From: Gemmatimonadota bacterium
GTDB taxonomy: Bacteria > Gemmatimonadota > Gemmatimonadetes > Palauibacterales > Palauibacteraceae
DNA: 64,000 nt
Assembly (NCBI GenBank): GCA_965207805.1
Contig: OZ242312.1
Coordinates: 1,068,748 to 1,132,747, forward strand
Direction: 5' to 3'
A program made the position numbers and the translations under genes. The notes below the pieces were generated by a model that did not search any database, was not told the origin of the DNA, and saw only the letters and a program-made list of their open reading frames with translations. This document shows positions 4,478 through 45,845 of this stretch, piece after piece (the first letter of the stretch is position 1; every line of letters begins with the position of its first letter).

Positions 4478-4714
4478 ATGAGCGTGCAAATCACGATTCG
4501 AGACGTTCCCGAGGAAGTGCGTGACCGGCTGAAAGTGCGCGCGGCTTCTCGCGGCCAGTCGATGCAGCGGTATCTGCGCGGCGAACTCACGCGGTTGGTA
4601 GCGAAACCGACCGTTGAGGAGTGGGTCGAGAGCGTTCGCGCCCGCAAGCGGCTGTCGACCAATCGGGTGACCACCGAGAGCATCCTGCAGGCGCGAGACG
4701 CCGACCGGCGGTGA
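4478..4714 (+). CDS. vapB: Type II antitoxin, ribbon-helix-helix (VapB/FitA-like, 'plasmid stability protein' family)
   Basis: 78 aa; N-terminus MSVQITIRDVPEEVRDRLKVRAASRGQSMQRYLRGEL is typical of RHH antitoxins. Overlaps the downstream PIN gene by 4 nt (GTGA). Confidence 0.8.
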   Translation: MSVQITIRDVPEEVRDRLKVRAASRGQSMQRYLRGELTRLVAKPTVEEWVESVRARKRLSTNRVTTESILQARDADRR

Positions 4715-5166
4715 CGGTCGTCGTTGATGCCTCGGTCCTCGCGGCGGCGGTAGCCGACCTCGGGACGGAGGGCGCCTGGTCGGAAGCTGCCATAGCGGAG
4801 GCGACTCGCGAAGGCCGTGCCCTGGCGGGCCCACAGATCGCCCTCGCGGAAGCGAGCAACGTTCTTCGCCGGCTGGAGCTTGCCGAGCGGCTGGAGACCT
4901 CCGAGGCCAATCTCGCCCGTCGCGATCTGCTGACGCTCGGTATCGAGCCGTTCCCGTTCGAACCTCTAGCCGATCGCGTCTGGGAACTGCGCCACAACGT
5001 CAGCGTTTACGATGGCTGGTACGTGGCGCTCGCCGAAGCGCTTTCCTGCCCCTTGCTGACGCTTGATTGCCGACTTGCGCGGGCTCGCGGGCCCGCCTGC
5101 CGCATCATCACTCCGCCCGCCTCGCAAGTCGTCCACGAGCGGGCCGTCGCGCGCCCCGCGGAGTAG
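4711..5166 (+). CDS. vapC: PIN-domain toxin VapC
   Basis: GTG start overlapping the vapB stop. N-terminal VVVDASVL (PIN D1), conserved acidic residues (E, D...YDGWYVALAEAL); ~150 aa. Confidence 0.75.
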   Translation: MTVVVDASVLAAAVADLGTEGAWSEAAIAEATREGRALAGPQIALAEASNVLRRLELAERLETSEANLARRDLLTLGIEPFPFEPLADRVWELRHNVSVYDGWYVALAEALSCPLLTLDCRLARARGPACRIITPPASQVVHERAVARPAE

Positions 5167-5653: not shown

Positions 5654-5708
5654 GTCTGCGGAGTCACCGGAATCGAATGAGTCGCTGGCGTCATCGACCG
5701 GGGGATCA

Positions 5709-5782
5709 TGCGCCCGGGAGGACTCGAACCCCCAGCCTTCTGATCCGAAGTCAGACGCTCTATCCAATTGAGCTACGGGCGC
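5709..5782 (-). tRNA. tRNA-Arg (anticodon TCG)
   Basis: The reverse complement folds as a cloverleaf: acceptor GCGCCCG, D-arm GCTCAATTGGATAGAGC, anticodon stem TCTGA/TCAGA with loop CTTCGGA (anticodon TCG), T-arm GGGGGTTCGAGTCCTCC. CCA is not encoded. Confidence 0.85.
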
Positions 5783-5903
5783 AGGTGGCGCGAGCGAAAA
5801 ACGGTAGAACCGGCCCGCGTCCGATGCAACCGGGACCGCTCGCGGGGTTCCGAGACAGCACGCTAGATTCGTGGACGCCAACCACCTCACCCGGAGCTGA
5901 CCG

Positions 5904-6503
5904 ATGCGACGACTGCGTACACTCTTCCTCCTCGGCGCGCTGACCGCCGGCCCACTGGCGCTCGCGACGCCCGCCCCCTCCCTCGCCCAGAGCCGCGCGA
6001 ACGTGGCCATGGCGGAGAGCTGGCCGGAGGCCGATCCCGACGACGTGGAGTCGGTCGACAGCATCCTGACCGCCCTCTACGACGTGATCTCGGGCCCGGC
6101 CGGGCAGGCGCGCGACTGGGACCGCTTCCGCTCCCTGTTCATCCCGGAGGCCCGCCTCATTCCCACGGGCCGGTCCCCCGAGGGAGAACACGGCTACCAG
6201 GTGTGGAGCCCGGGCGAATACGCGGAACAGGCGGGCGGCTTCCTCGAACAGAACGGATTCTTCGAGCGGGAGATCGCCCGCACCGAGGAGCGCTTCGGCC
6301 CCGTGGTGCACGCGTTCTCGACCTACGACTCGAAGCGCACGGCGGACGACCCCGAGCCGTTCGCCCGCGGCATCAACTCGATCCAGCTCATGCACGACGG
6401 CGGCCGCTGGTACGTCGTCACGATCTACTGGGCCGCGGAACGGCCGGATCTGCCGATCCCGGGACCGTATCTGCCGTCCGGGAACGGAGGAGGTACCCCG
6501 TGA
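5904..6503 (+). CDS. Secreted NTF2-like/SnoaL-like small protein (hypothetical)
   Basis: Signal peptide MRRLRTLFLLGALTAGPLALATPAPSLAQS. C-terminal ...MHDGGRWYVVTIYW is typical of an NTF2-like fold. First gene of a 3-gene coupled operon. Confidence 0.55.
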   Translation: MRRLRTLFLLGALTAGPLALATPAPSLAQSRANVAMAESWPEADPDDVESVDSILTALYDVISGPAGQARDWDRFRSLFIPEARLIPTGRSPEGEHGYQVWSPGEYAEQAGGFLEQNGFFEREIARTEERFGPVVHAFSTYDSKRTADDPEPFARGINSIQLMHDGGRWYVVTIYWAAERPDLPIPGPYLPSGNGGGTP

Positions 6504-9031
6504 AGTTCTCCCCGAAGCTCCGCCCCCCCGCCGCCCGGCCCGCCGTCTCGTGGCGCGTCGCCGCGTGGACCGCCACGGCCGCCGTCGCGCTGGCGGCCGC
6601 ACCACCGCTCCAGGCGCAGAACCTCGCCGGCTTCGAGCCCGCCCCCGCGCGCGACAACGCCTTCGCGCTCACGCTCGAGTCCATCATGCGGGGCTCCGAG
6701 CACGTCGGGCAGGCGCCCGTCGGCGTGAGCTGGTCCGACGACGGCGAGTGGATCTACTTCCGCTGGCTCCCCGGCGGCGCCGAATGGCACGAGCCGCGCG
6801 CCCTCTACCGCGTCCGTTCGACCGGCGGCACGCCCGAACGCGTCGATGACGAGGAAGAGCTTCGCCTCGGTCCCATCCTGGCGCAGGGCGACGTCTCCCC
6901 GGACGGCCGCTGGCGCGTGACGTCCTCCGACGGAGATCTCTATCTCATCGAACGGGACGGCGCCGCGACACGCCGGCTGACCCACACGCAGGACTTCGAG
7001 GCAGGACCCGTCTTCTCCGGCGACGGCGCCTCCATCTTCTTCCGCCGCGGGAACAACCTCTTCGCGTTCGACATCGACGACGGCGAGATCCGGCAACTCA
7101 CTTCGATCGGCGGCCCGGAACAGCCCGAGGACCCGGAGGCCGAGGGGCACAAGGCCTTCCTCGAGGAGCAGCAGCGAGAGCTGTTCGAGCACGTCCGCGT
7201 CCAGGACATTCGGGAGGAGCGGGCCGACGAGCGGCGCGAACTCCGGGAGGCCGGGCAACGCGAAACCCTCCACCTCGCGCAGGGCGAGCGCGCGCAGTTC
7301 TTCGTCGCCGACCCCACGGGAAGCCACGTCGCGGTCACCGTCACCCGCGGCGATTTCAACCAGGGTGGCCGACGCACGGATATTCCTCTCTGGATCACGC
7401 AGTCCGGCTATACCGAGAACACCGAGATGCGCCCCAAGGTCGGCGACGAGCAGGGCGTCTCCAGGCTCGCCGTCGTGGACACGGATTCGGGCGAGGCGAC
7501 GTGGCTCGACCTCACCGCGGACGGCTCGGACGCGGACCCGGAGGAGACGGAACCGGAAGACGCGGAGGCCGACGGCGACGAAGCCGAGTCGGACGAGGCG
7601 GCATCCGACGACCGGCTTGCCGTCGCGAGCTTCGCGGGCTGGAACGACGCGGGCACGCACGGGCTCGTGTTCGCCGTGGACTTCGACTACAAGACGTGGC
7701 GCCTCTACGCCTACGAAGCGGCGAGCGGCTCGCTGACGTTGCTCGACACGCATCACGACGAGGCGTGGGTCGGCGGCCCCTGCTTCGGCTTCCAGGGCGC
7801 GGGCTGCATCGGCTGGCTCCCGGCGGAGACGGCGGGCGAGATGCCGCGCGCCTGGTACGTGAGCGAGGAGACGGGTTACTCGCATCTGTACGCGATCGAC
7901 GCCGATGGCGGGAACCGGGAGGCGCTCACGGCCGGCGACTGGGAAGTTCTCGGAGCGACGATCCCCGATGGGTGGGACACGTTCCTCCTCCAGACGAGCG
8001 AACTCTCCCCCTTCGACCAGCATCCGTGGCGCATGGATTTCGACGGCTCGGACCGGGTCCAGCTCCTCGAGGGTGAGGGCTCGTTCACCGTCACGCCGTC
8101 GCCCGACGGGCGCCGCTTCGCGGTCCTCCATTCGCGCGCGAACCGGCCGCCCGAACTCTACGTCGCCGACGCCGCCCCGGGCGCCGCCATGACCCAGGTC
8201 ACGACCTCGCCCACCGAGACGTGGCTCGGCTTCCCCTGGCTCAAGCCCGAGATCGTGCACTTCGAGGCCCGCGACGGGACGCCGGTGCCCGCCCGCATCT
8301 ACCGGCCCGCCGACTTCGGCGTCGAACCCAACGGGGCCGGCGTCATCTTCGTCCACGGGGCGGGGTACCTGCACAACGTCCACAACTGGTGGTCGAACTA
8401 TTACCGCGAATTCATGTTCCACCACTTCCTGGCGGCCCAGGGCTACACGGTGCTCGATATCGACTACCGCGGCTCCGCCGGGTACGGGCGCGACTGGCGC
8501 ACGGCGATCTACCGGCACATGGGCGGCTGGGACCTCTCCGACCAGGTGGACGGCGCCGCGTACCTCGTTCGCGAAGAAGGCGTCGACCCCGACCGCATGG
8601 GGATCTACGGCGGATCCTACGGTGGCTTCATCACGCTGATGGCGCTCTTCACGGCGCCCGAGTCCTTCGCGGCGGGCGGCGCGCTCCGCGCCGTGACCGA
8701 CTGGGCGCACTACAACCACTGGTACACGAGCCGCATCCTCAACCTCCCGCACGAGGACGAGGAGGCGTACCGCCAGTCCTCCCCCATCTACTTCGCCGAG
8801 GGGTTCGAGGGACACCTCCTCATCGCGCATGGGATGTACGACACGAACGTGCATTTCTCCGACGTCGTGCGCCTCGCCCAGCGTCTCATAGAACTGGGGA
8901 AGGAGAACTGGGAGATGGCCGTGTACCCGGTGGAGAACCACGGTTTCGCGGAGCCCTCGTCGTGGACCGACGAATACCGGCGCATCTACGAGTTGTTCGA
9001 GCGCGTGATCGGCGGCGGCCGCGGGGGGTGA
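6500..9031 (+). CDS. S9-family serine peptidase (prolyl oligopeptidase / dipeptidyl-peptidase-like) with N-terminal beta-propeller
   Basis: GTG start overlapping the upstream stop (GTGA), SD ggagg at 6487-6491. Signal peptide. C-terminal alpha/beta hydrolase domain with GGSYGG (nucleophile Ser) and downstream Asp/His (MYDTNVHF...ENHGF). Acidic low-complexity insert near 7510-7620. Confidence 0.8.
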   Translation: MKFSPKLRPPAARPAVSWRVAAWTATAAVALAAAPPLQAQNLAGFEPAPARDNAFALTLESIMRGSEHVGQAPVGVSWSDDGEWIYFRWLPGGAEWHEPRALYRVRSTGGTPERVDDEEELRLGPILAQGDVSPDGRWRVTSSDGDLYLIERDGAATRRLTHTQDFEAGPVFSGDGASIFFRRGNNLFAFDIDDGEIRQLTSIGGPEQPEDPEAEGHKAFLEEQQRELFEHVRVQDIREERADERRELREAGQRETLHLAQGERAQFFVADPTGSHVAVTVTRGDFNQGGRRTDIPLWITQSGYTENTEMRPKVGDEQGVSRLAVVDTDSGEATWLDLTADGSDADPEETEPEDAEADGDEAESDEAASDDRLAVASFAGWNDAGTHGLVFAVDFDYKTWRLYAYEAASGSLTLLDTHHDEAWVGGPCFGFQGAGCIGWLPAETAGEMPRAWYVSEETGYSHLYAIDADGGNREALTAGDWEVLGATIPDGWDTFLLQTSELSPFDQHPWRMDFDGSDRVQLLEGEGSFTVTPSPDGRRFAVLHSRANRPPELYVADAAPGAAMTQVTTSPTETWLGFPWLKPEIVHFEARDGTPVPARIYRPADFGVEPNGAGVIFVHGAGYLHNVHNWWSNYYREFMFHHFLAAQGYTVLDIDYRGSAGYGRDWRTAIYRHMGGWDLSDQVDGAAYLVREEGVDPDRMGIYGGSYGGFITLMALFTAPESFAAGGALRAVTDWAHYNHWYTSRILNLPHEDEEAYRQSSPIYFAEGFEGHLLIAHGMYDTNVHFSDVVRLAQRLIELGKENWEMAVYPVENHGFAEPSSWTDEYRRIYELFERVIGGGRGG

Positions 9032-12000
9032 TGATGCGGCCGGCCCGCGCGCGGCCGGTTCTGGCGCTGGCCCTCGTCGCCTCGGCCTGCGGGGCGCCGG
9101 ACCCCGGACCCTGGGTCGAGGCGGACGGATACCGCTGGCGGGAGCTGCGGCCGCGGGGCTCGGGCGGCTTCCGGCCGCTCGACGGTTCCGACCGCGGCGT
9201 GTCCTTCCTGTACGACGTGGACGAGGAAACGCGCCTTCGCAACCGGGTGCTCGCGGAAGGGCAGGGCGTCGCGATCGGGGACGTCGACGGCGACGGCCTG
9301 GCGGACCTCTTCCTCGCCGGCTTCGGCCGCGCGAGCGCCCTCTACCGCAACCTCGGCGGCTGGCGCTTCGAGGAGATCACGCCGCCCGCCCTCGCGCTCG
9401 CGGACGTGCTCGCGAGAGGCGCCGCGCTCGTCGACGTCGATGGAGATGATGACCTCGATCTCGTGATCGCGGTCCACGGGGGCCGGAACCGGATCTTCCT
9501 CGGCGACGGCGCGGGCGGCTTCGCCGAACTCGAGGACGCGGGTTTCGCCGGGGCGTGGGGGAGCACGACGTCCACGCTGGCCGACGCCGATGGCGACGGC
9601 GACCTGGACCTCTACATCGCCAACTACAAGACGCGGCAGGTCGACGACCTCTATCCGCCGGACGTTCTCGACATCAACCACCTGCAGCGCGGCGACGACG
9701 GAAATCTCGTCATCCCACCGGAACTGCGGGAACTCTACGACGAGCACTACCGCGTGGAGTTCGATGGCCGCTTCGTGCGCCGGTTCGAGCTTGGAGAGCC
9801 GGACGAGTATTACACCGGACTCGGGGACGGACGCTTTGTGCCCGCAGCCCCCGGCGCGCCGCTCACGCGTTCCCGCGGGAACGTCTCGACGCCGGCTCGC
9901 GACTGGGGACTCGCGGCGAGGTTCAGCGACTGGGACGAGGACGGCGACCCGGATCTCTACGTGGCGAACGACTTCAACAGCGAGGACGGAATCTGGATCA
10001 ACCGCGGCGACGGGACGTTCGCGCCCGCTCCGGCGGAGGCCGTCCGCACGACGAGCCTCTCCTCGATGGCCGTCGATGTCGGAGATCTCGATCGCGACGG
10101 AGACCTCGATCTCCTCACCACCGACATGCTTGCCCGGGACGCGGAGGAGCGCCTCGCCCAGACGCCGAGCTACGAGGCCGTCCCCGAGCGGCCGGGCGTC
10201 ACGGACACGAGAGTCCAGGTGAACCGGAACGCGGTGCAGCTTAACCGCGGCGACGGCACGTTCGCCGAGGCCGCGTGGGAGCTCGGGCTCGCCGCCTCCG
10301 ACTGGACGTGGGGCGCGCTCATCATGGACGCGGACCTGGACGGCTGGAACGACATCCTCGTGACGACGGGACACGCGTGGGACCAGTTGGACGGCGATGC
10401 GAACGCCCGCGTGGCCGCGATCCCCGGGCTGCCGGCAGATCAGGCTCTGCGCATGTTCCCGTCGCTCCCGCAGCCGAACGTCGCCTACCGCGGAGGGTCG
10501 GACGGCTTCACGGATGTGAGCGAGAGTTGGCGCTGGGGACACGAGGCCGACATCTCGCACGGTCTCGCGGCGGGCGATCTCGACCGCGACGGCGACCTCG
10601 ACGTCGTCGTGACCCGGCTCGGCGCGCCCCCCGTCCTGTACCGGAACGACGCTCCGGCGCCCCGCATCCTGGTGCGTCTGCGGGGGTCGGGCCCGAACAC
10701 GCGCGGAATCGGCGCCCGGATCCGCCTCGAGGGGTCCGACGGGGTTCCCGCCCAGGTGCGGGAGATCACCGCGGGCGGCGCCTATCTCTCCTCTTCGGAA
10801 CCCGCCGCCAGCTTCGCCGCGGAGTCGGACGGGGAGATGGTCCTCACCGTCGACTGGCCGGACGGCCGCCGTACGCGGCTGGAAGGCGTCGTCACGAACC
10901 GGGAATACGTGATCGATGCTGCCGCTGCGGAGCCGGTGGCTCCCGACCCGGACGGCCACGCCGCGGCGGCGACAGCCGAGGCCGGCGCCCACTTCGTGGA
11001 CATTTCGGAGCGGCTCGGGCACCGGCACGTCGAATCGCCCTTCGACGACCGGCTCCGGCAGCCGCTCCTGCCCCACTCGCTCGATCGCCTCGGCCCGGGC
11101 GTATCGTGGATCGACGTGGAGGACGATGGCGACGCGGATCTCGTGGTCGGGAGCGGCCGGGGGGGCAGCCCGGTCGTGATTCGGAACGAGGGCGACGGGT
11201 TCGCCGCCCCGCGCGCCCTCGTGCCCGCGCTGGCGTGGGACGCGACCGCCGTGCTGCCGCATCGCGCGGCCGACGGTCGCGTCGCGCTGCTCATCGGCAC
11301 GAGCGCGTACGAGGCGGGCTCGCCCGCGGAGGCCGCGGCCGTGCCCGCGGTCATCGCGGCGCCGCTCGGCGCCTCCGCGCCGGCGCCCCCGCTCATCGAA
11401 GCTCCCGGCACCTCGCCCGGGCAGCTCCCCGCCGCGACCGGCCCCCTCGCCCAGGCCGACATCGACGGCGACGGCGACCTCGACCTCTTCGTGGGCGGAC
11501 GCGTCGCCCCCGGCGCCTACCCCATTGCGGTCGACTCCCGCCTGCTGATCCACGATGGCGACGCCCTGCGCGTCGATGCGGAGCGCTCTCTCCCCTTCGC
11601 GCGTCTCGGGCTCGTCTCCGCCGCGCTCTTCACGGACTACGACCTCGATGGCGACCCCGACCTCGCGCTCGCCCTGGATTGGGGCAGCGTCCGCCTCTTC
11701 CGCAACGAGGAGGGCCGTTTCACCGACGTGAGCGACGCGCTCGGGCTCACGCGTCTCAGGGGACGCTGGAACGGCCTCGCCGCCGCGGACTTCGATGAGG
11801 ACGGCCGGCCCGACCTCGTCGCCACCGGCTGGGGCGCGAATCTCGACGTCCCGCCCGCCTACTCGCTCATCTACGGCGACATGAACCGCGACGGCATCGT
11901 CGATCTCGTCGAGGCCCGGATGGAATCCGGCACGTGGCGTCCGCTACGGGGAAGAGATGCGCTCGCCGTCCCCGGCGGACTCTCGGCGCTCCTCCGCGTG

Positions 12001-12762
12001 ACGTACGAGCGATTCGCGAACACGCCTCTGACCGACGTCATCGGCGGCCTGGACCCTGAGCGCCGGCTGGACGTCAACGAACTGCGCCACACCGTGTGGC
12101 TCAACCGCCCTTCCGGCTTCGAGAGCGCCCCGCTGCCCGCGGCGGCCCAGCGCGCGCCCGCGTTCGGGGTCGCCGGCGCCGACCTCGACGGGGACGGCCA
12201 CGAAGATCTCGTGCTCGCGCAGAACTTCTACGCCGGCCGGCCGGGCGCGCCGCGCCACGACGCGGGGCGCGGGCTCTGGCTGAGAGGGGACGGCGAGGGA
12301 GGCTTCGAGCCCGTGCCGGGATCCCGGTCCGGGATCGCGGTCTACGGGGACGCGCGGGCCATCGCGCTCGCGGACCACGACCGCGACGGACGGGTGGATG
12401 TGGCCTTCGGCGTCAACGGCGGCGAGACCCGGCTCTATCGCAACGTCGGTGCGACGCCCGGTCTGAGGGTCACGCTCGAAGGCCCACCCGCGAACCCGCG
12501 GGCCATCGGCGCCCGCCTCCGGCTCGAATACGCGGACGGCACGTTCGGTCCGGCGCGGGAGGTCCGGTCGGGGGAGGGTTACCTGGCCCGCCACGAATCG
12601 ACGCAGACGCTGGGCATGGCGGGTGCGGCCGACACGGCTCCCGCGCCCGCGACGCTGCATGTCGTGTGGCCGGATGGCGAGGAGACGTCCGTTTCGATCG
12701 CGCCCGGGACTCTGGAAGTGCGCGTCCCGCCCGCCGGGACGGGAGGCTCGTCCGGCCTCTGA
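9031..12762 (+). CDS. CRTAC1-family protein, tandem double unit (2x [FG-GAP/VCBS repeats + ASPIC/UnbV domain]), lipoprotein
   Basis: ATG overlapping the upstream stop (ATGA). Lipoprotein signal ...LALALVASAC. Repeated GDVDGDGxxDL / DxDGDGDLDL FG-GAP motifs. Two ASPIC/UnbV-like C-terminal modules (RLEGSDGVPAQVREITAGGAYLSS... and RLEYADGTFGPAREVRSGEGYLARHES...). Confidence 0.75.
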   Translation: MMRPARARPVLALALVASACGAPDPGPWVEADGYRWRELRPRGSGGFRPLDGSDRGVSFLYDVDEETRLRNRVLAEGQGVAIGDVDGDGLADLFLAGFGRASALYRNLGGWRFEEITPPALALADVLARGAALVDVDGDDDLDLVIAVHGGRNRIFLGDGAGGFAELEDAGFAGAWGSTTSTLADADGDGDLDLYIANYKTRQVDDLYPPDVLDINHLQRGDDGNLVIPPELRELYDEHYRVEFDGRFVRRFELGEPDEYYTGLGDGRFVPAAPGAPLTRSRGNVSTPARDWGLAARFSDWDEDGDPDLYVANDFNSEDGIWINRGDGTFAPAPAEAVRTTSLSSMAVDVGDLDRDGDLDLLTTDMLARDAEERLAQTPSYEAVPERPGVTDTRVQVNRNAVQLNRGDGTFAEAAWELGLAASDWTWGALIMDADLDGWNDILVTTGHAWDQLDGDANARVAAIPGLPADQALRMFPSLPQPNVAYRGGSDGFTDVSESWRWGHEADISHGLAAGDLDRDGDLDVVVTRLGAPPVLYRNDAPAPRILVRLRGSGPNTRGIGARIRLEGSDGVPAQVREITAGGAYLSSSEPAASFAAESDGEMVLTVDWPDGRRTRLEGVVTNREYVIDAAAAEPVAPDPDGHAAAATAEAGAHFVDISERLGHRHVESPFDDRLRQPLLPHSLDRLGPGVSWIDVEDDGDADLVVGSGRGGSPVVIRNEGDGFAAPRALVPALAWDATAVLPHRAADGRVALLIGTSAYEAGSPAEAAAVPAVIAAPLGASAPAPPLIEAPGTSPGQLPAATGPLAQADIDGDGDLDLFVGGRVAPGAYPIAVDSRLLIHDGDALRVDAERSLPFARLGLVSAALFTDYDLDGDPDLALALDWGSVRLFRNEEGRFTDVSDALGLTRLRGRWNGLAAADFDEDGRPDLVATGWGANLDVPPAYSLIYGDMNRDGIVDLVEARMESGTWRPLRGRDALAVPGGLSALLRVTYERFANTPLTDVIGGLDPERRLDVNELRHTVWLNRPSGFESAPLPAAAQRAPAFGVAGADLDGDGHEDLVLAQNFYAGRPGAPRHDAGRGLWLRGDGEGGFEPVPGSRSGIAVYGDARAIALADHDRDGRVDVAFGVNGGETRLYRNVGATPGLRVTLEGPPANPRAIGARLRLEYADGTFGPAREVRSGEGYLARHESTQTLGMAGAADTAPAPATLHVVWPDGEETSVSIAPGTLEVRVPPAGTGGSSGL

Positions 12763-12771: not shown

Positions 12772-13431
12772 CTAACGGAAGCGGTAGCCGAAGCCGATCG
12801 TGACGCCGATGTCGTTCTGCAGCTTCGACGCGTCCGTCGCGGCGGAGATGTAGTAGGACGCCATGTCCCGGAGTTCGCCCCGGAACCAGAGCGCTGACAT
12901 CAGTTGCACCCGGACCCCGATCGCGGCCGTCGCCATCGGATCCGTCGCGCTGAGTTTCGGCACTTCGGCACCGTAGAACTTCAACTGCCGGAGCCCGCCG
13001 CCCATCGTGAAGTAGGGTTCGAGCGCGCCCGCCGAGCCCGACGACCGAAGCCGGAACGTCAGGTTCACCGTGCCCGCCAGGTACTCCATTTCGCCGAGCG
13101 TTCCGGGACCCCGTCCGGGTCCGCCGCCGACGCCTTCGAGCGTCGCCGGGGAATAGAGACCCATGACGCCGATCCCGACCGCGCGCGAAGCCCAGTAGGT
13201 CAGCTCGCCCCCCATCATCACGTCCGGCGGCATCACGGTGCCGTACGCGCCGGTGTTGTCCGTGAGGTTGTTGAGGGGCTGGATGACGCCGGCGAGTCCG
13301 AACAACTCCGGACCGGTATCATCGCCGAACGGGGCCGCGGGAGCCATCTGGGCCGTCAGGTTCGACGCTCCGGGAGCGAGCCCCCACAGAAGGAAAACGA
13401 GAAAGAGAAGAACGCCGGACGGGCGTCTCAT
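12772..13431 (-). CDS. Outer-membrane beta-barrel protein (OmpA/OmpW-like porin family, hypothetical)
   Basis: Signal peptide MRRPSGVLLFLVFLLWGLAP. Alternating hydrophobic beta-strand pattern and aromatic-rich C-terminus (IGFGYRFR). ATG overlaps the upstream stop (ATGA). Confidence 0.6.
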   Translation of the reverse strand: MRRPSGVLLFLVFLLWGLAPGASNLTAQMAPAAPFGDDTGPELFGLAGVIQPLNNLTDNTGAYGTVMPPDVMMGGELTYWASRAVGIGVMGLYSPATLEGVGGGPGRGPGTLGEMEYLAGTVNLTFRLRSSGSAGALEPYFTMGGGLRQLKFYGAEVPKLSATDPMATAAIGVRVQLMSALWFRGELRDMASYYISAATDASKLQNDIGVTIGFGYRFR

Positions 13432-16307
13432 TTGGTCCTCACGATCGTGATTAGCGGTTCCGCGGTCTCACCCGCCGGGGTTCCTCCCGCCGTTTCCAGC
13501 GACAGCGACAGGCCCGGCGCGCCGGGAGCCGAGGCGAGTGAGAAGTACTGTACGCTCGACGGCCCTACGTCGAGGCTCAGCACCCGGGTTTCAAACCCCA
13601 GCGGCTCGGCCCGCAGCGCGATCGCGGTCGGAAGACCCGACCGGGCGTCCGCATCCTGATTCAACGATCGGAACACGTCCGTGGCGTCCCACGTTGCCGC
13701 GGCAAGCGGCGGCGCCTCCTCCGGCCCCGCCTCCGGCGCGTCGAGGTCCTCCTCCGCGGGATCCTCCGACCCGTCCTCCAGCGTTCCCGCGCCGAGCGCC
13801 AGCGAGACCGACACGTCCGCCAGAATGTTCGCCCACTCCCTTCCCGTGACCCGCTCCAGGTTCGCGATCCCGCGTCCGTAGTTCTGTCCGCCCCCGACGA
13901 CGGATCGGAAGAAGGCCCGTTCATCCCCCCCCGCCTGGTCCGCGAGCCGTCGCAGGAGGAACCAGCCGAATCCCCGCATCTGCAACCCGCCGACGCCGTC
14001 CGGGTCGTCCGTCGAGACGGTGGGAGCTCCGGGGAGTCCGAGCATGTACAGGCCGAGGTTGCGGAAGTTGGTCAGCATGTAGGCATTGAAGGTGTCGAGT
14101 GCCTCGGGCGTCGCGGATACGCGATCGAAGGTGAGGCGGTCGCCCACCGGGAGCCCCAGCGCGGCGAGCCCCGCCACCTCCTCGGCCAGACTCGAAAGCG
14201 CCTCATCCAGCCAGACTTCCTCCGCCGCCCCGAAACCCGCCGAAGAAACCGGCACCCGGCGCCCGGCGCTGACGATATGCTGGACTTCATGCGCCACGAG
14301 CGCGGGCGTCTCGCGCAGCAGATCCTCCGTCGAGATGGCGCGGCCGAGCGTCGCATCGGGGTCCGCGCTCACGCTGTAGACGATCTCTGCCTCGTTGCTC
14401 GCCGGGCAGATCCCGCCGTCCGGGTCCGACAGCTCGCCGTCGCCCCGTCCCGATGCGGCAAGATCCTGGGGGAGGGAGAACCCGCCGACGCCCGCCTCGC
14501 CGTCGCCGAGCCGGTTCACGGCGGGCGTGAACAGGATGACGACGCGGCCGTTCCGGTCGATGTCTTCTGGGGGACCGAAATAGGAGGTCACGGCCGGAAG
14601 CACCGTCCCGTCCAGTTCCTGCGCGAGCCCGAGCCACTCTTCCTCCGTCGGGCCTCCGGCGGGTGCGGTGAGATCCTCCACCAGGACCACGCCGTCGCCC
14701 ACGGCTCGCACCGTTCCGCGTACCGTGCTCATGGGGTCGACGCAGGTGGCCGCCAGCTCCGGGCCGACGGAGAAGAAGTACTCGAGCGTGTCTCCCGGGA
14801 CCGGCGCGGAAACCGCTGTCGATCCGTCGGACCGAAGGGGCGAGACCCTGGCCTGAACAAGTCGGGCAAGCGTGCGTGCGCGAATCCCGATGTCCCTGCG
14901 CGTGCCGGAGAGCGCGGCCTCCGCGACCTGAGGGTCGATCGTCCCGCGGCCCACCGCGGTCGCCGGGCCATCGCCCGACATGTCGGCAGGCGTCCGCAGC
15001 GTGAGCCGGAGCGGGAGTTCGCTCGAAGCGGTCCGCCCCGTATTGCCGATGACGATTCGATACTCCCGCGTCTCGGGCTCGATGTCTTCCGGCGCCCCCG
15101 GTTCTCCCGCCTCGCCCGCATCCACGGGCGCTCCGGGCCGGAACTGGACGCATTCGACCTCGACGGGTCCGCGCAGCGTGATCGATTCGCCGACGTCGAG
15201 ACCTACGCGCAGGTTCGCCGGTTCGATCGGCAGCAGAAGACCGTTGCTGGCGTCGGAACCCACGAGCACCCGCACGCCGACCTCGCGCTCGGGCAGGCAC
15301 GTGCGGGCGAAGGCCGGCACTTCCACCGTGAGTTCCGTCTCCGTGGCGCTCACCACCGTCGCCGCCGTGCCTTCGATCCAGACCTCGTTGTCGGCCGGAA
15401 CCGAGCGGAAGCCGCTGCCGTAGAGAAGCGCCCGCGTGCCCGCGGCAAGTCTTCCGTTCCCGATCGAGTCGAGTTGTACGGCCCCGCCCGGCGCTGCGAG
15501 CGCCGTGGCCGAAAAGGAGAGCGTGTCCGAGTACACGCCGCCCGAAGCGAAGACGCGGATCCGGTAGTCGCCCGGCCGCGAGCCCAGCGTGAAGACGGCG
15601 CCGCCCCGTCCGTCCGCGTCCGTCATCACGATGTCGTGCGTGAGGGCGCCTGCGCTTTCCGGCGTCTCCTCCGGCGCAGGCGGTTCCCCCGGCTCCGCCA
15701 CGGCCATCGTATCCGCCGCCTCCGGCAGTCCCGGCGTGTCCTCCGCTTCCGCCCCGTCCGGGGTGTCCTCCGGCACCGTCCATTCGAAGGCGAGGCGGAC
15801 GCCGCCGGCCGGAGCGCCGCTCGTCGTCTCCGCCCGGATGGAGAACGGGAGCGGCAGCTGGCTTCCCGCCTCCGCCCGCTGGCCGTCTCCCTCCACGATG
15901 CTGAGAAGGACCGTGTCCGCGGCCTCGGCGAGGACGAGGAAGCGGAGCGGCGGGACGTTCGCGGCGCTCGGGATGTCCGCCTGGATCTCCGCCTCGCCCG
16001 GCGTGGGCCCCGCGCGGTAGACCGATTCCGCGACGCCGTTCTGCCCCGCGACGGCGACCCCCGGCGACAGCTCCCCCTCGCCCCGCACGATGACGAAGCG
16101 GACCGGGGCCCCTTCGACCGCGTTCCCGAGCGCATCCTCGACCCGGACCGCGATCGGGGGGTCCGTGGCCTCACCCGTCACGATCGTGTCCACGGCGGCG
16201 GAGACGGGGACGAGCGTCGTCGGCGGAGAGCCGACCTCCGTGCTGCCACCGTCCCCGCACCCGATCGCGAGCACGCCCGCGAGCATGGCCAGCGCGCCGC
16301 GCCTCAC
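13428..16307 (-). CDS. Large lipoprotein zinc metalloprotease candidate (gluzincin-like HEVQH...E) with Ig-like/Big and IPT/TIG domains
   Basis: GTG start 16307 overlapping the upstream stop (GTGA). Lipobox ...LAIGCGDGG. N-terminal Big-like Ig domains, an IPT/TIG-like segment, HExxH (ALVAHEVQHIV) with Glu ~19 aa downstream. Acidic linkers. 959 aa. Confidence 0.65.
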   Translation of the reverse strand: MRRGALAMLAGVLAIGCGDGGSTEVGSPPTTLVPVSAAVDTIVTGEATDPPIAVRVEDALGNAVEGAPVRFVIVRGEGELSPGVAVAGQNGVAESVYRAGPTPGEAEIQADIPSAANVPPLRFLVLAEAADTVLLSIVEGDGQRAEAGSQLPLPFSIRAETTSGAPAGGVRLAFEWTVPEDTPDGAEAEDTPGLPEAADTMAVAEPGEPPAPEETPESAGALTHDIVMTDADGRGGAVFTLGSRPGDYRIRVFASGGVYSDTLSFSATALAAPGGAVQLDSIGNGRLAAGTRALLYGSGFRSVPADNEVWIEGTAATVVSATETELTVEVPAFARTCLPEREVGVRVLVGSDASNGLLLPIEPANLRVGLDVGESITLRGPVEVECVQFRPGAPVDAGEAGEPGAPEDIEPETREYRIVIGNTGRTASSELPLRLTLRTPADMSGDGPATAVGRGTIDPQVAEAALSGTRRDIGIRARTLARLVQARVSPLRSDGSTAVSAPVPGDTLEYFFSVGPELAATCVDPMSTVRGTVRAVGDGVVLVEDLTAPAGGPTEEEWLGLAQELDGTVLPAVTSYFGPPEDIDRNGRVVILFTPAVNRLGDGEAGVGGFSLPQDLAASGRGDGELSDPDGGICPASNEAEIVYSVSADPDATLGRAISTEDLLRETPALVAHEVQHIVSAGRRVPVSSAGFGAAEEVWLDEALSSLAEEVAGLAALGLPVGDRLTFDRVSATPEALDTFNAYMLTNFRNLGLYMLGLPGAPTVSTDDPDGVGGLQMRGFGWFLLRRLADQAGGDERAFFRSVVGGGQNYGRGIANLERVTGREWANILADVSVSLALGAGTLEDGSEDPAEEDLDAPEAGPEEAPPLAAATWDATDVFRSLNQDADARSGLPTAIALRAEPLGFETRVLSLDVGPSSVQYFSLASAPGAPGLSLSLETAGGTPAGETAEPLITIVRTK

Positions 16308-17437
16308 CGCGGCTCCACCTTCCAGAAGGCGATGCCGCCCGCCTGCTTGCCCACGTCCACGCTCGCCGCCCGGACCCCGTCCCGGAGGTCGATCACGTCC
16401 ACCGTTCCGGGCTCGCCGCCCACGCCCTCCACGCTCACGAAGGCGTACCGCGAGTCCGGAGAGATTGCGATCCCGTGCGGCAGCGTCCGCGTGTTCGGAA
16501 CCCGGGCCACCTCCGTGCCGCCGGCCAGATCCCAGACGCCGGTCGCCTGCCCGCCCTTGTACGTCACGACGAGGTAGGCGCCGTCCGGAGACACATCGAG
16601 ATTGTACGGACCTTCGCCCGTCTCGAACCGCCGCGTCACCCGCCACGACTGCACATCGATCTCCAGCACCTCCGCGTTCCGGTTGCACGCGACGTACACA
16701 TGGCGTCCGTCCACGGCCGGGTGCGCCCACGTCGGGCTGCACGCGGCCGCTCCCACGGGCTGTGTCGGGAGCCAGTCGTACGGCCAGGCCTGCTCCGAGC
16801 CCGGGGAGAGGAGAAAGCGCTGCGTGACCTCGAGCCGGTGCGCGTCGACCTCCACGAGCATCTCATCCATCATGCACACCGAGTAGTGCAGCGCCCCGTC
16901 CGCCGTGAGTCGCGAGCCGTGCGGCATCGTGCAGGTCGGGATCTGCGCGACCTCGATCATCGCGCCGACGTCCACGACGGACACCGAACTCGGCTCGTGT
17001 TCGCCGTGCAGGTTGAAGTTCGCCGCGAAGAGCAGGCCCGCCGGCGTCACCTGCATGGTGGCGGGGAAGAGCCCCAGTTCGGCGCTCCCCAGCGGACGGT
17101 TCGTCTCCGTGGAATAGGCGACGACCGTGCCGAAGGGATTCCCGTGCGCGAGCGTCACGTACCACCGTTCCCCGCTCGGATCGACCGCCAGGCCGTGCGG
17201 CCCGTCGATTTCCGTCGGGAAGCGGCCCACGAAGACGGAATCCAGCACCGACGCACCGGTGCCATCGAACCGGACGAGATCGACGCGATCCTCCGATTCC
17301 GCCGCCACGTAGACGTAATACGACGACTGGCCGTCGGGGCTGTTTTCCTGGGCGGCCGCGGGCGGAACCGCCGCGACCGTCATTCCCAGCGCCCACAAGG
17401 CCATCGCCATGCGGGGTGTTGTAGACTCGGCTGGCAT
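16304..17437 (-). CDS. YVTN-family beta-propeller repeat protein, secreted
   Basis: Signal peptide (MAMALWALGMTVAAVPPAAAQ). Multiple ~40-aa repeats with the PHG(L/I)A(V/I)(D/S)PDG...YV(T/A) pattern. Confidence 0.7.
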   Translation of the reverse strand: MPAESTTPRMAMALWALGMTVAAVPPAAAQENSPDGQSSYYVYVAAESEDRVDLVRFDGTGASVLDSVFVGRFPTEIDGPHGLAVDPSGERWYVTLAHGNPFGTVVAYSTETNRPLGSAELGLFPATMQVTPAGLLFAANFNLHGEHEPSSVSVVDVGAMIEVAQIPTCTMPHGSRLTADGALHYSVCMMDEMLVEVDAHRLEVTQRFLLSPGSEQAWPYDWLPTQPVGAAACSPTWAHPAVDGRHVYVACNRNAEVLEIDVQSWRVTRRFETGEGPYNLDVSPDGAYLVVTYKGGQATGVWDLAGGTEVARVPNTRTLPHGIAISPDSRYAFVSVEGVGGEPGTVDVIDLRDGVRAASVDVGKQAGGIAFWKVEPR

Positions 17438-17565
17438 ACGATTTACGCGCGTTCGCGACTCCTTCTCCGAGAAGACTCCGGGCCCGGCAAACGGCTCCGC
17501 CGGACACTCCACCACCTACCCTTAGAGTAGACAATTCCTCAAGGGGTTGCCAATCGGTTAGGTTG

Positions 17566-17952
17566 TCGTCGGCGGAGGGAGAAGAGGTCGCGGACGGGTG
17601 CTCCGCACGCCGTTCGAGGAAAGTCCGGGCTCCGCAGGGCACGGCGCCGGGTAACGCCCGGGCGTCGCAAGGCGACGGAAAGTGCCACAGAGAGCAGACC
17701 GCCGATGGCGGCTTAGGCCGCACAGGCAAGGGTGAAAGGGTGGGGTAAGGGCCCACCGCGTTTCCTGGTAACAGGAGACGGCACGGCAAACCCCGCCGGG
17801 AGCAAGGCCAAGCAGGAACGAGCGGCGGCCCGTCGCGTTCGAGTTCCGGGTAGGCCGCACGAGGCCTCGGGAAACCGCAGGCCCCAGATAGATGACCTCG
17901 CCGCGGGCCTGGCCCGCCGGTAACAGAACCCGGCTTATCTCCCTCCGCCTCA
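17566..17952 (+). ncRNA. rnpB: RNase P RNA (rnpB), bacterial type A
   Basis: Universally conserved GAGGAAAGTCCGGGCTCC...AGGGCA; ...ACAGAACCCGGCTTA near the 3' end. 5' GGCGGAGGGAG pairs with 3' CTCCCTCCGCC (P1). Ends are approximate (+/-10 nt). Confidence 0.85.
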
Positions 17953-17974
17953 CTTCAATGAAAGGGAAGGGTCC

Positions 17975-19264
17975 TTGGCTTCAACGTCCTCCGCCGCGAT
18001 GAGGTTCGACATTCGCGAGCACGTGCTCGACAACGGGTTGAGAGTCGTCCTGCAGCCGGATGCGTCGGCTCCCCTCGTCGCCGTTCACGTCATGTACCAC
18101 GTGGGATCGAAGAACGAGCGCGCCGGCCGCACCGGCTTCGCGCACCTCTTCGAGCATCTCCTCTTCCAGGGCTCCGAGCACGTACCGCGCGAGCACCACT
18201 TCAAGCTCGTCCAGGATGCCGGCGGCACGCTCAACGGGACGACGTGGTTCGACCGCACGAACTACTTCGAGACGCTGCCCGCGAACGAACTGGATCTCGG
18301 CCTGTGGCTGGAGTCCGACCGCATGGGGTTCTTCAAGCCGGGGATTACACAGGAGAAGCTCGACAACCAGCGCGAGGTCGTGAAGAACGAGCGGCGGCAG
18401 TCGTACGAGAACCGCCCCTACGGCCTTGCGTTCGAGGCCCTGCTCGAGCGCGCCTATGACGAGGGACACCCCTACCGTCATCCGACCATCGGCTACATGC
18501 CCGACATCGACGCGGCCCGGCTCGAGGACGTACACGAGTTCTTCGACCTCCACTACGGACCCAACAACGCGACCCTCGTCCTGGTCGGCGATTTCGACCC
18601 GGCTGCGGCGCTGGCGCGCGTCGAGGCCTGGTTCGGGGAGATTCCTCCGCGACCCGTGGCGCCGCGCCCGGACGTACCCCTCCCGGTGCGCGGCGGCGAG
18701 CGGCGCACCCTCCTTCGAGACCGCGTCCAGATGCCCCGCGTGTACCTCATGTATCATTCGCCGCGCTACGCGGACCCCGATTTCGAGGCCGTCGTCATCC
18801 TCAACTACCTGCTCGCCGACGGGAACAGTTCCCGCTTCGAGAAGACGCTCGTGTATGAAAAGCGGATGGCGGCGGACGTGACCTCCTTCACCTGGCCGAC
18901 CGAGAGTGCCGGGATGTGCTTCGTCGTCGCGACCGCCCGCCCCGGCGTCGCCGCCGCCGACCTCGAGACCGAGGTGAGGGACGTCCTCGATGACCTGCTT
19001 CGCGGCGGCGTCGAGGAGGAAGAGTTGGAGGGGGCGCGCAACCGGGCGCGGCGCGGGCTCCTGAACGGACGCGCCGGCTTCGGCGACCGCGCGGACGCGA
19101 TCGCGCACGCCGCCGTGTTGCGGGGCGACGCCGGCTACGTGAACGACGCCTTCACGCGCTACGGAGCCGTCGGCCGCCCGGACGTGGAGCGCGTGGCCCG
19201 CGCCGTGCTCGACCCGGGCGGGCTCACGGTCCTCCACGTCGTTCCCGAGGAGGAGACGTCTTGA
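17975..19264 (+). CDS. M16-family zinc peptidase (pitrilysin/insulinase-like), active subunit
   Basis: Inverted zinc motif HxxEH (GFAHLFEHLLFQGSE) plus downstream Glu. TTG start as listed; ATG alternative at 17999. Confidence 0.85.
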   Translation: MASTSSAAMRFDIREHVLDNGLRVVLQPDASAPLVAVHVMYHVGSKNERAGRTGFAHLFEHLLFQGSEHVPREHHFKLVQDAGGTLNGTTWFDRTNYFETLPANELDLGLWLESDRMGFFKPGITQEKLDNQREVVKNERRQSYENRPYGLAFEALLERAYDEGHPYRHPTIGYMPDIDAARLEDVHEFFDLHYGPNNATLVLVGDFDPAAALARVEAWFGEIPPRPVAPRPDVPLPVRGGERRTLLRDRVQMPRVYLMYHSPRYADPDFEAVVILNYLLADGNSSRFEKTLVYEKRMAADVTSFTWPTESAGMCFVVATARPGVAAADLETEVRDVLDDLLRGGVEEEELEGARNRARRGLLNGRAGFGDRADAIAHAAVLRGDAGYVNDAFTRYGAVGRPDVERVARAVLDPGGLTVLHVVPEEETS

Positions 19265-45002: not shown

Positions 45003-45845
45003 GTGCGAGACGTGTATCCCGAACTCTTCACACTGACGCTGCCGGTTCTCGGCGAATTCACGATCACCAGCTTCGGCGTCATGATGGCGCTCGCCTTTCT
45101 GTGCGGGTACCTGGTGCTGCGCGCGGAAACGGCGCGTCTCGGCGCGGGGCGCGACCTGGCGGCGGACATGCTCATGGCGGCGCTGATCGGCGGCATCGTC
45201 GGGGCGAAGATCTATTATGTGCTCCTCTACTGGGACCGGACGGTGCTCGATCCGCTGGGGATGATCTTCTCGCGCAGCGGGCTCGTCTGGTACGGCGGGT
45301 TCATCGGCGGGTTCATCGGAGTCATGTGGGTGCTGTACCGGCGCCCCGTCACCCCCGGGCTCGGGGTGGACGCGATCGCCCCCGCGCTCCCGCTCGCCTA
45401 CGGGATCGGCCGCATCGGCTGTTTCCTCGTCGGCGACGACTACGGAGGCCCGACGGAGTCGTGGGTCGGCATCGCCTTCCCCAACGGCCTTCCGCCCACG
45501 ACGGCCGGTAATTTGAGGGGTTTCGGGGCGGAGGTGGACCCCGCGATCCCGGACACGGAGGTCCTCGCCGTCCACCCCACGCAGCTCTACGAGACGGGAC
45601 TCTCGTTCATCATCTTCTTCCTCCTGTGGCGGCTGCGGCGGCACCCGCACGTCCAGGGGTGGCTGTTCGGCTTGTGGCTCGCGATGGCCGGGGCCGAGCG
45701 CTTCATCATCGAGGTCTTCCGCGCCAAGGACGACCGCTTCTTCGGAGGCTTCACGCTCGCCCAGGTGATCTCGGTCCTGCTGGTCGCGGGGGGCATCGCG
45801 CTCGTCCTCAGGTTGCGCCGCCGGGCCGCAGAGGCGGCGGTGTGA
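45003..45845 (+). CDS. lgt: Prolipoprotein diacylglyceryl transferase
   Basis: Lgt signature region (...GRIGCFLVGDDYG...), multi-TM; SD aggag upstream of GTG. Confidence 0.88.
   Translation: MRDVYPELFTLTLPVLGEFTITSFGVMMALAFLCGYLVLRAETARLGAGRDLAADMLMAALIGGIVGAKIYYVLLYWDRTVLDPLGMIFSRSGLVWYGGFIGGFIGVMWVLYRRPVTPGLGVDAIAPALPLAYGIGRIGCFLVGDDYGGPTESWVGIAFPNGLPPTTAGNLRGFGAEVDPAIPDTEVLAVHPTQLYETGLSFIIFFLLWRLRRHPHVQGWLFGLWLAMAGAERFIIEVFRAKDDRFFGGFTLAQVISVLLVAGGIALVLRLRRRAAEAAV

Follow-up and report, generated by a model that had tools for sequence, protein, structure and literature searches.

Cartilage acidic protein 1 of vertebrates (CRTAC1/ASPIC; 9etn) is built from an FG-GAP/VCBS propeller with DxDxDG loops and a following UnbV_ASPIC domain, and vertebrate CRTAC1 proper carries a C-terminal EGF-like calcium-binding domain. 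Bacterial dipeptidyl peptidases IV (MEROPS S9B) join a propeller to an alpha/beta-hydrolase domain with a Ser-Asp-His triad; in the DPP4 propeller, a double-Glu motif holds the N-terminus of the substrate and defines dipeptidyl-aminopeptidase action. Members of the NTF2-like superfamily share a cone fold in which three helices precede a curved sheet. The UnbV_ASPIC domain also occurs in the UNBV/E4 proteins of enediyne polyketide cassettes, the origin of 'UnbV' in the Pfam domain name. A sequence-only reading of the DNA analysed here had stated that CRTAC1/ASPIC proteins have no established function in bacteria, and the literature that we searched agrees: searches on bacterial UnbV/ASPIC/CRTAC1 returned no function and met the names only in passing, in Solibacter paralog tables and in work on repeat proteins of Poribacteria and on ice-binding proteins. 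A search on UNBV and enediynes returned nothing, and searches for a CRTAC1 structure paper and for bacterial homologs returned nothing useful.

We investigated a cluster of three genes, all on the plus strand, in a window of 64,000 nucleotides (the whole stretch of DNA analysed) from a Gemmatimonadota bacterium (Table 1). GC3 lies between 0.81 and 0.90 in the frames of ORF1, ORF2 and ORF3, which matches the expectation for real genes at 70% GC.

Table 1. Positions, strands and main properties of the features described in the window
Feature	Coordinates	Strand	Description
tRNA-Arg(TCG)	5708..5783	-	ARAGORN; Rfam tRNA 71.9 bits; upstream boundary of the cluster
Gap between tRNA-Arg and ORF1	5784-5903		120 nt; putative promoter region of the cluster
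ORF1	5904..6503	+	199 aa, ATG start; Sec-exported, signal peptide, NTF2-fold
ORF2	6500..9031	+	843 aa from GTG 6500; secreted S9 peptidase, signal peptide
Acidic low-complexity insert in ORF2 propeller	7478..7615	+	aa 327-372
Codon of catalytic Ser706 (GGSYGG)	8615..8617	+	triad completed by Asp781 and His814
ORF3	9031..12762	+	1243 aa from ATG 9031
ORF3 N-terminal part	9031..10950	+	lipoprotein signal (Cys20), 7-bladed FG-GAP propeller with 7 DxDxDG loops, then UnbV_ASPIC (aa 559-626)
ORF3 C-terminal part	10951..12762	+	second CRTAC1-like unit: 7 more DxDxDG loops, second UnbV_ASPIC
Convergent neighbour operon (Pfam)	12772..17515	-	OMP beta-barrel, 12772-13431; Ig-like Big_1/TIG protein, 13428-about 16300; YNCE-like propeller, 16304-17515

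Domain structure of the three proteins

The sequence of ORF2 is that of an S9 peptidase whose catalytic domain is DPP4-like and whose triad is intact. Pfam returned Peptidase_S9 (1.4e-50), DPPIV_N (1.2e-15, two stretches) and PD40; the last two support an N-terminal beta-propeller, and orthologs match Tricorn_N/DPPIV_N. The catalytic half matched btDPP4 in the PDB at 4e-50 (5.6e-64 with a profile), and S706, D781 and H814, aligned with the btDPP4 catalytic domain, are invariant across eight orthologs. The acidic insert that had been read in this protein is present, with 19 Asp or Glu per 40 residues (aa 327-366), and its length varies among orthologs (missing in L083, short in L012). At the apparent double-Glu position, L221-E222-E223 stands about 32 residues past the 'NNLFAF' strand, where the alignment to btDPP4 is non-significant (domain 1, i-E 17), and orthologs read EA, EQ or RE against EE in the window. 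Peptide trimming by the S9 enzyme is the best supported of the functions proposed for the cluster. A hint of peptide nutrition comes from 11 metagenome loci, where CstA precedes the S9 ortholog by about 200 nt; a pair of M16 peptidases near the cluster in the window is a second such hint.

ORF3 is a lipoprotein of two CRTAC1-type units, in each of which a UnbV/ASPIC sandwich accompanies a 7-bladed FG-GAP propeller bearing calcium-type DxDxDG loops. Pfam matches were FG-GAP_3 (1.8e-72, eight stretches) and UnbV_ASPIC (PF07593, 8.9e-22, two stretches, the best in the N-terminal unit), the DxDxDG-type motifs number 14, and the NCBIfam search was empty. The two tandem units proposed by the sequence-only reading are borne out by aligning the halves to each other (aa 66-615 against 672-1219, about 550-615 aa, 28% identity; E 1e-29, or 2e-13 with composition correction), and the lipoprotein call by a lipobox, MMRPARARPVLALALVASAC20, read by eye against a PROSITE-type pattern, whose Cys20 is invariant in 22 homologs. 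The duplication, previously judged notable, turned out to be standard in a large family: each of the 120 best homologs, with identities as low as 44%, has the double unit. The AF2 model of the N-unit is an all-beta propeller (pLDDT 86.7, pTM 0.89), which Foldseek matched to murine CRTAC1 (9etn_A) with E 1.3e-23, TMq 0.61 and TMt 0.70, the second-best match being an integrin alpha headpiece (3.9e-11). Since EGF families are missing from its Pfam matches, ORF3 is CRTAC1-like in its core but is not orthologous to animal CRTAC1. NCBI names its homologs 'CRTAC1 family' or 'FG-GAP-like repeat-containing'. The JGI label 'enediyne biosynthesis protein E4', attached to some of them, is annotation carry-over.

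ORF1 belongs to a family in which 7,695 of the 8,000 candidates scored matched at E<=0.001, and whose alignment contains 39 invariant columns. The invariant polar residues are peculiar to the family; invariant positions include Y59, R70, E121, E123 and Y141. Pfam and NCBIfam matches to ORF1 are absent even at E<=1; among the 26 family members searched, one gave DUF4440 of the Pfam NTF2 clan at 0.073, the window protein giving none. The AF2 model (pLDDT 85.6, pTM 0.76) nevertheless adopts an NTF2-like alpha+beta cone fold, and Foldseek paired it with NTF2-like structures at a probability of 1.0 and TMt values reaching 0.77, with 159 PDB matches at E<=0.001; the best 50 of these 159 are almost all NTF2-like. 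Among the domain calls made earlier, Peptidase_S9 and FG-GAP with UnbV_ASPIC were recovered and NTF2 holds at the level of the fold, while the expected SnoaL match in Pfam was not found. ORF1 represents a very large, well-conserved family of secreted NTF2-fold proteins lacking a Pfam or NCBIfam model. Two leads were discarded: the profile matches of ORF1 to PDB sequences (Rv1155, 0.02; a lytic transglycosylase, 0.3) were marginal and implausible, and the enediyne link suggested by its match to SgcJ together with the 'UnbV = enediyne E4' label was rejected because SgcJ does not stand out among the 159 NTF2 matches, which are alike, and because PKS genes are absent nearby.

Gene junctions and putative co-transcription

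The ORF1/ORF2 junction is a true GTGA overlap (6500-6503), as had been read, with GGAGGAGG just upstream; both this overlap containing the GTG start of ORF2 and its Shine-Dalgarno sequence are conserved in nine genomes (L001-L009, with ATGA in L008). The ATGA overlap proposed at 9031 did not hold. The ORF2/ORF3 junction reads GTGATGATG, the ORF2 stop TGA occupying 9029-9031 and the ORF3 ATG starting at 9031, which leaves an overlap of 1 nt (TGATG); an alternative GTG start at 9028 would extend it to 4 nt. The ATGATG start of ORF3 (MMRPAR) is kept in L003, L006 and L009; the exact overlap between the S9 and CRTAC1 genes is seen in the window alone, spacers elsewhere measuring 0-45 nt. Operon features are present: the genes are gapless on one strand, their order is kept in L001-L009, and neither terminator-like nor promoter-like sites were seen between them in a scan with E. 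coli-type consensus, a weak instrument at 70% GC. Transcription would start in the gap after tRNA-Arg, ORF2 would be translationally coupled to ORF1 through GTGA and the Shine-Dalgarno sequence, and ORF3 to ORF2 through TGATG. Start-stop overlaps are, however, possible at 13 of the 25 close same-strand junctions within the window, and in compact high-GC genomes they should not be taken as evidence of functional coupling. An overlap-capable junction also joins an apparently unrelated pair, a metallo-beta-lactamase gene followed by a homocysteine methyltransferase gene.

Linkage of the three families across genomes

Co-occurrence outside the source genome was confirmed, with the trio present in nine Palauibacter assemblies. 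In a scan of 80 loci anchored on ORF1, the complete trio was found solely in these Ca. Palauibacter genomes (L001-L009) and ORF1 was loosely linked in L012 and L014; at about 68 of the 80 loci both S9 and CRTAC1 were missing nearby, and no neighbour of ORF1 recurred across phyla. In the scan anchored on S9, a CRTAC1 gene stood downstream of the ortholog in one of 80 metagenome loci and ORF1 was nearby in none; at least 1.5 kb of downstream sequence was available in 57 of these 80. Since short contigs are frequent in the scans, part of the absences come from a missing flank and not from a missing gene. Among CRTAC1-anchored loci, S9 was present in L082, L083 and L166 and absent in L081 and L167, both of which keep the ORF3 ortholog, and L084, L085 and L168 had unrelated contexts. 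The convergent operon beyond ORF3 is repeated in L081, L082, L166 and L167; it lies outside the trio, but the number of lineages in which it stays with the ORF3 ortholog is larger than for S9. The trio was not found outside Palauibacter, and the ORF1-, S9- and CRTAC1-anchored tests all show independent distribution. Roseivirga spongicola (L074), in which ORF1 and S9 are convergent and 2.8 kb apart, was rejected as a second case of linkage because the Roseivirga loci L027 and L051 lack ORF1-S9 proximity.

The conservation of an S9 and CRTAC1 neighbourhood, put forward as a check by the sequence-only reading, was recovered in part: adjacency is restricted to a small Gemmatimonadota clade, and one of the 80 metagenome S9 loci shows it. 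Within that clade, S9 is followed at 0-45 nt by at least one CRTAC1-like gene in at least six non-Palauibacter lineages (L012, L014, L082, L083, L086, L166), whose upstream flanks differ (rml genes, DUF454 or ORF1). In most of these relatives the gene after S9 is a paralog, CRTAC1a, and not the ORF3 ortholog; in L012, L083, L086 and L166, rml genes precede the series S9-CRTAC1a-(single unit)-CRTAC1b. Such recurrent adjacency exceeds the expectation from random drift, and a real functional link inside the clade would be consistent with it. An ancestral array of rml genes, S9, CRTAC1a and CRTAC1b, with ORF1 a few kb upstream, may have been compacted in Palauibacter, where loss of the rml genes and CRTAC1a would have brought ORF1, S9 and CRTAC1b together.

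Interpretation and comparison with known systems

We consider it moderately probable that the locus, on the chromosome of a Ca. Palauibacter-like member of the Gemmatimonadota, is a lineage-specific cluster and not an obligate three-part machine; its genes are probably co-transcribed, and their three products, envelope or extracellular proteins, would be exported separately. Each family is mostly found without the other two elsewhere, which argues for an ordinary lineage-specific cluster. The S9 peptidase would serve nutrition by trimming oligopeptides that enter through its propeller, ORF3 with its lipid anchor and double propeller is a candidate calcium-dependent binding platform, and the NTF2-fold protein may have a separate small-molecule function. 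The sequence-only reading had instead taken obligate co-translation as the sign of a dedicated extracellular processing or binding module. In such a module, the CRTAC1-like lipoprotein would capture a substrate for the S9 enzyme, or would itself be matured by it, with the NTF2-fold protein as third partner and translational coupling fixing their proportion. The overlapping junctions, the ORF1/ORF2 junction kept in nine genomes and the S9-CRTAC1 succession in six other lineages despite differing upstream genes would fit such a module, but about 68 of 80 genomes show no linkage of ORF1, 79 of 80 metagenome S9 loci lack a CRTAC1 neighbour, ORF3 orthologs occur without S9 in two lineages, the gene touching S9 is usually CRTAC1a, and overlaps are commonplace in the window; we regard the module as rather unlikely.

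Nor do we find it easy to see ORF3 as a eukaryote-like matrix-protein mimic of a sponge symbiont, with the peptidase digesting proline-rich host matrix peptides. In its favour, the nearest relatives are Ca. Palauibacter MAGs that come from sponges, where Palauibacterales are abundant (PMC10469786); Poribacteria, which are sponge-associated, carry several copies of UnbV_ASPIC domains (PMC3909097); and the N-unit is folded like animal CRTAC1. However, full-length double-unit homologs (44-63% identity) are widespread in Gemmatimonadota, also in other contexts such as TonB-receptor loci, the Gemmatimonadota MAGs recovered include isolates whose names indicate soil or sediment sampling, and identity to CRTAC1 is just 17%, with the EGF domain absent; a role in host interaction is very unlikely. 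Equally doubtful is an enzymatic role of ORF3 in place of a binding one, perhaps as a carbohydrate-active propeller of the kind seen in PL11 rhamnogalacturonan lyases, with its adjacency to S9 being incidental: Foldseek did match YesW/YesX (2zux, 2zuy, E ~1e-7) and aldos-2-ulose dehydratase (4a7k), and some paralogs adjoin TonB-dependent receptor, GSDH, sulfatase-maturing and sulfotransferase genes, but these enzyme matches are far weaker than that to CRTAC1 (TMq 0.27-0.29 against 0.61) and CAZyme or other catalytic family models did not match ORF3.

Our preferred reading, that of a lineage-specific cluster, is of limited significance, as the families already have names in public annotation ('FG-GAP-like repeat-containing', 'CRTAC1 family', Peptidase_S9, 'hypothetical protein') and their linkage is narrow. 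The clade-restricted S9-CRTAC1a/b array nonetheless offers a concrete place for testing binding by bacterial CRTAC1-like proteins. It is distinctly improbable, on present indications, that in the Palauibacter-related clade the array of S9 and CRTAC1-like double-propeller lipoproteins works at the surface as a 'capture and trim' system, acting on glycoproteins or proline-rich peptides (for example of sponge or sediment matrix). The S9-to-CRTAC1 spacing of 0-45 nt, kept across lineages whose flanks differ, would be compatible with such a system; if true, this would be the first functional handle on a large, functionally blank bacterial CRTAC1/ASPIC family.

Compared with the NTF2-like structures SgcJ (4ovm), CaMKII-association-domain-like 3gwr and JCSG 3blz and 2rgq, ORF1 has the same cone fold of three helices then a curved sheet, but it lacks a match to the Pfam NTF2 clan, carries a signal peptide and is 8-17% identical to solved structures. 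With the enediyne UNBV/E4 proteins, ORF3 has the UnbV_ASPIC domain in common, whereas the polyketide synthase and other cassette genes are absent from the window and related loci. ORF2 shares the propeller, the alpha/beta-hydrolase domain and the triad of bacterial DPP IV (btDPP4 8hay/7y4g, PmDAP IV 5yp1, Stenotrophomonas 2ecf), but its N-terminal 450 residues scarcely align with them and it adds a 40-residue acidic insert. Finally, ORF3 has the propeller, loops and UnbV_ASPIC domain of vertebrate CRTAC1, in the same order, but differs from it by two units per chain, a lipoprotein anchor, the absence of the EGF-like domain and an identity of about 17%.

Layout of the three genes

All three genes proposed by the sequence-only reading were found on the plus strand: ORF1, for a small NTF2-fold protein; ORF2, for an S9 peptidase; and ORF3, for a double CRTAC1-like lipoprotein. 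G+C content is 68–75% along the entire window; third-position G+C of the three frames, at 0.81–0.90, marks them as real genes of this genome. The start-to-stop overlaps claimed for them stood at one junction. ORF1 and ORF2 share a genuine GTGA, preceded by GGAGGAGG; the ORF2/ORF3 junction reads GTGATGATG, and since the ORF2 stop occupies 9029–9031 and the ORF3 ATG begins at 9031, it is a one-base overlap (TGATG) rather than ATGA. Between the genes, a scan with E. coli-type consensus, which is weak evidence, returned neither sigma-70-like promoters nor plus-strand terminator-like hairpins, in keeping with an operon-like layout. On the 3' side, only 9 nt separate the ORF3 stop from the end of a convergent gene for an outer-membrane beta-barrel.

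Overlaps of 1, 4 or 8 nt are possible at 13 of the 25 close same-strand junctions of this window, including TamA-like/TamB (functionally related) and metallo-beta-lactamase/homocysteine S-methyltransferase (apparently unrelated). Overlap alone is therefore no evidence for a dedicated module. Core chromosomal genes make up the rest of the window, among them those for MutS, EF-G, RsmB, a TamA/TamB-like pair and two M16 peptidases. The TamA/BamA-like and TamB genes resemble the trio in overlap style, the GH3/beta-lactamase-like ORF may encode a fusion enzyme for recycling of the cell wall, and a sodium:solute symporter gene lies upstream of the Big/PKD protein gene, with a possible 4-nt start–stop overlap.

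Positions of features in the window and in homologous loci (L-numbers) of other genomes or metagenome contigs
Feature	Sequence	Positions	Strand	Remarks
PIN-domain protein gene	window	4621–5166	+	just upstream of tRNA-Arg
tRNA-Arg(TCG)	window	5708–5783	-	upstream limit of cluster
ORF1	window	5904–6503	+	199 aa
ORF2	window	6500–9031	+	843 aa, counted from GTG 6500
ORF3	window	9031–12762	+	1243 aa, counted from ATG 9031
OMP beta-barrel, ~1,000-aa Big_1/TIG Ig-like protein, YNCE-like propeller	window	12772–17515	-	convergent operon
M16 peptidase pair, NUDIX, sigma-70 gene	window	17924–20607	+	beyond that operon
Omp85/POTRA (TamA/BamA-like) gene, then 1,555-aa TamB/DUF748 protein	window	45512–52722	+	possible 4-nt overlap
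GH3 (NagZ-like) + serine beta-lactamase/transpeptidase-like domain	window	54747–58442	+	single 1,231-aa ORF
948-aa protein: Big_9, Big_2, cadherin-like, PKD repeats	window	59374–62220	+	weak leishmanolysin (M8) match, E 1.3e-4
rml genes upstream of S9	L012	1654–4733
rml genes upstream of S9	L083	2146–2775
rml genes upstream of S9	L086	5059–7827
rml genes upstream of S9	L166	1138–1770

Conservation of the neighbourhood

The neighbourhood was scanned from each gene in turn. For ORF1, a search of one-genome-per-species GTDB contigs with a homolog alignment (A1) gave 590 relatives, of which the best 80 were probed by tblastn with ORF2 and ORF3. Among these 80, the complete trio occurs only in nine Ca. 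Palauibacter assemblies (L001–L009), all of which keep the ORF1/ORF2 GTGA and its SD (ATGA in L008). An ORF1 homolog lies upstream of an S9–CRTAC1 pair in L012 (3.4 kb) and L014 (1.9 kb). None of the ~68 other loci, which belong to Gemmatimonadota, Acidobacteriota, Bacteroidota and Rhodothermales, shows S9 or CRTAC1 at full length within the available flank, and the ORF1-anchored loci revealed no recurrent neighbour across phyla. ORF1–S9 proximity in a Roseivirga locus (L074) was rejected as a second linkage, being absent from L027 and L051.

For S9, an ortholog alignment (A2) was run against metagenome contigs, and the best 80 of 553 relatives (full length, 41–65% identity) were inspected; in 57 of them the contig extends 1.5 kb or more downstream. 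CRTAC1 genes follow S9 only in the closest (L086, 65%), and ORF1 accompanies it in none of the 80; other S9 lineages have other neighbours, such as CstA, a carbon starvation, peptide/pyruvate transporter. The CstA gene lies ~200 nt upstream of ORF2 orthologs (45–51% identity) in 11 metagenome loci (L103, L105, L106, L108, L111, L114, L115, L117–L120), which hints at a peptidase family serving peptide nutrition.

The surroundings of eight CRTAC1 homologs were compared. L082, L083 and L166 contain S9; L081 (67% identity) and L167 (53%) lack it, yet both retain the downstream OMP/Big_1 operon, the M16 pair and the sigma factor; L084, L085 and L168 have unrelated contexts (other CRTAC1 paralogs, TonB-dependent receptors, GSDH and sulfatase-maturation genes). 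The expected conservation of the trio thus holds in nine Palauibacter assemblies and is complete nowhere else in the scans; S9–CRTAC1 pairing recurs in L082, L083, L086, L166, L012 and L014 but is not seen at 79 of 80 metagenome S9 loci or in L081 and L167. The OMP/Big_1/YNCE-like and M16/NUDIX/sigma-70 set accompanies the ORF3 ortholog in L081, L082, L166 and L167, two of them S9-less (L081, L167). The Ig-like gene probably starts near 16300, because its listed start (16742) overlaps the YNCE-like gene by >400 nt.

Relatives outside Palauibacter carry rml genes for dTDP-rhamnose biosynthesis (RmlA-, RmlB-, RmlC- and RmlD-like) directly upstream of S9, which is followed by CRTAC1a (45–47% identical to ORF3) and then by CRTAC1b, the ORF3 ortholog (59–63%). 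L086 carries an extra single-unit CRTAC1 between the two, and L012 and L166 a small cytochrome-c/TPR protein gene upstream of S9. The rml genes and CRTAC1a would have been lost from the site in Palauibacter, a loss that would have brought ORF1, S9 and CRTAC1b into contact. The S9/CRTAC1 junction is variable, with the one-base overlap in the window only and elsewhere spacers of up to ~20–45 nt.

The ORF1 protein and the role of the cluster

ORF1 matched no Pfam or NCBIfam model, and a PDB sequence search returned marginal matches only; its AF2 model is an NTF2-like cone (pLDDT 85.6). The proposed NTF2-like identity is therefore kept by predicted fold, without a Pfam model, SnoaL included. An enediyne link (SgcJ match and UnbV label) was dropped, PKS genes being absent and SgcJ one of 159 NTF2 matches. 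The family, publicly labelled 'hypothetical protein', is very large (7,695 matches at E<=0.001 among 8,000 candidates scored), with ~190-aa signal-peptide members in Gemmatimonadota, Acidobacteriota, Bacteroidota (Roseivirga) and Rhodothermales; it likewise combines an NTF2-like predicted fold with no Pfam or NCBIfam model. Its 39 invariant columns hold many polar residues (including Y59, S63, R70, W72, R74, E121, E123, R126, S139, Y141, N158 and Q161). Members are mostly standalone genes, and in nine Acidobacteriota loci the neighbour is a divergent MFS_3 transporter gene. The homolog on L010 (JAJDZN010000071.1), binned 'Bryobacterales', is 85% identical to the Palauibacter protein; the contig is probably mis-binned Gemmatimonadota.

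We favour, with some reserve, a single transcript for three independently exported proteins. ORF2 would be a propeller-gated serine peptidase trimming oligopeptides, as suggested by the family it belongs to, by the CstA genes linked to its orthologs and by the M16 pair close by; ORF3 would be a lipid-anchored, calcium-loaded double propeller, a putative binding platform given its integrin-type and CRTAC1-type fold; and ORF1 may have a separate, small-molecule-binding or enzymatic function. The dedicated module first proposed, a real clade-specific S9–CRTAC1 link, draws on an arrangement recurrent and tightly spaced in about six lineages with differing flanks; given the S9 loci lacking CRTAC1, we consider it unlikely. 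For each of the three proteins the nearest relatives come from Ca. Palauibacter and further Gemmatimonadota MAGs, many of them sponge-derived; PMC10469786 describes the Palauibacterales. A role in sponge host interaction seems quite improbable. Equally doubtful is a carbohydrate-active ORF3, whose sole hint is weak fold matches to PL11 lyases.

Comparison with DPP4 and animal CRTAC1

ORF2 is an S9 peptidase, as predicted, and DPP4-like by sequence (Peptidase_S9 1.4e-50, DPPIV_N 1.2e-15, PD40), with Ser706 (GGSYGG), Asp781 and His814 invariant across eight orthologs. The acidic insert, also confirmed (19 D/E within 40 residues), is a loop of variable length, short in L012 and absent in L083. 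Among solved structures, bacterial DPP4 enzymes come closest (btDPP4, 4e-50; 5.6e-64 with the ortholog profile). The N-terminal 450 residues barely align with DPP4, however, and the position seemingly matching the double-Glu motif, in this hardly alignable region, is EE in ORF2 and EA, EQ or RE in orthologs; we therefore name it only DPP4-like, its specificity putative.

ORF3 is indeed a lipoprotein of two tandem CRTAC1-type units, with eight FG-GAP_3 stretches, two UnbV_ASPIC domains, fourteen DxDxDG-type loops (seven per half), a lipobox Cys20 unvaried among 22 homologs and halves 28% identical over ~550–615 residues. The duplication had been thought notable; yet the 120 best homologs measure 1175–1330 aa (except P0158, labelled partial, 905 aa), all carry UnbV_ASPIC and FG-GAP repeats down to 44% identity, and eight of eight with inspected loci have two UnbV_ASPIC domains, so the double unit is the family norm. 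Names given to ORF3 homologs in public annotation are 'CRTAC1 family protein' and 'FG-GAP-like repeat-containing protein'. The literature searched yielded no bacterial function for CRTAC1/ASPIC proteins, as had been stated. Modelled with AF2 (pLDDT 86.7, pTM 0.89), the first unit best matches the murine CRTAC1 crystal structure (9etn, E 1.3e-23, TMt 0.70), with integrin alpha next and far below (4e-11). By repeats, UnbV domains and fold, the ORF3 core is CRTAC1-like; unlike animal CRTAC1, it lacks the EGF domain and is doubled and lipidated.
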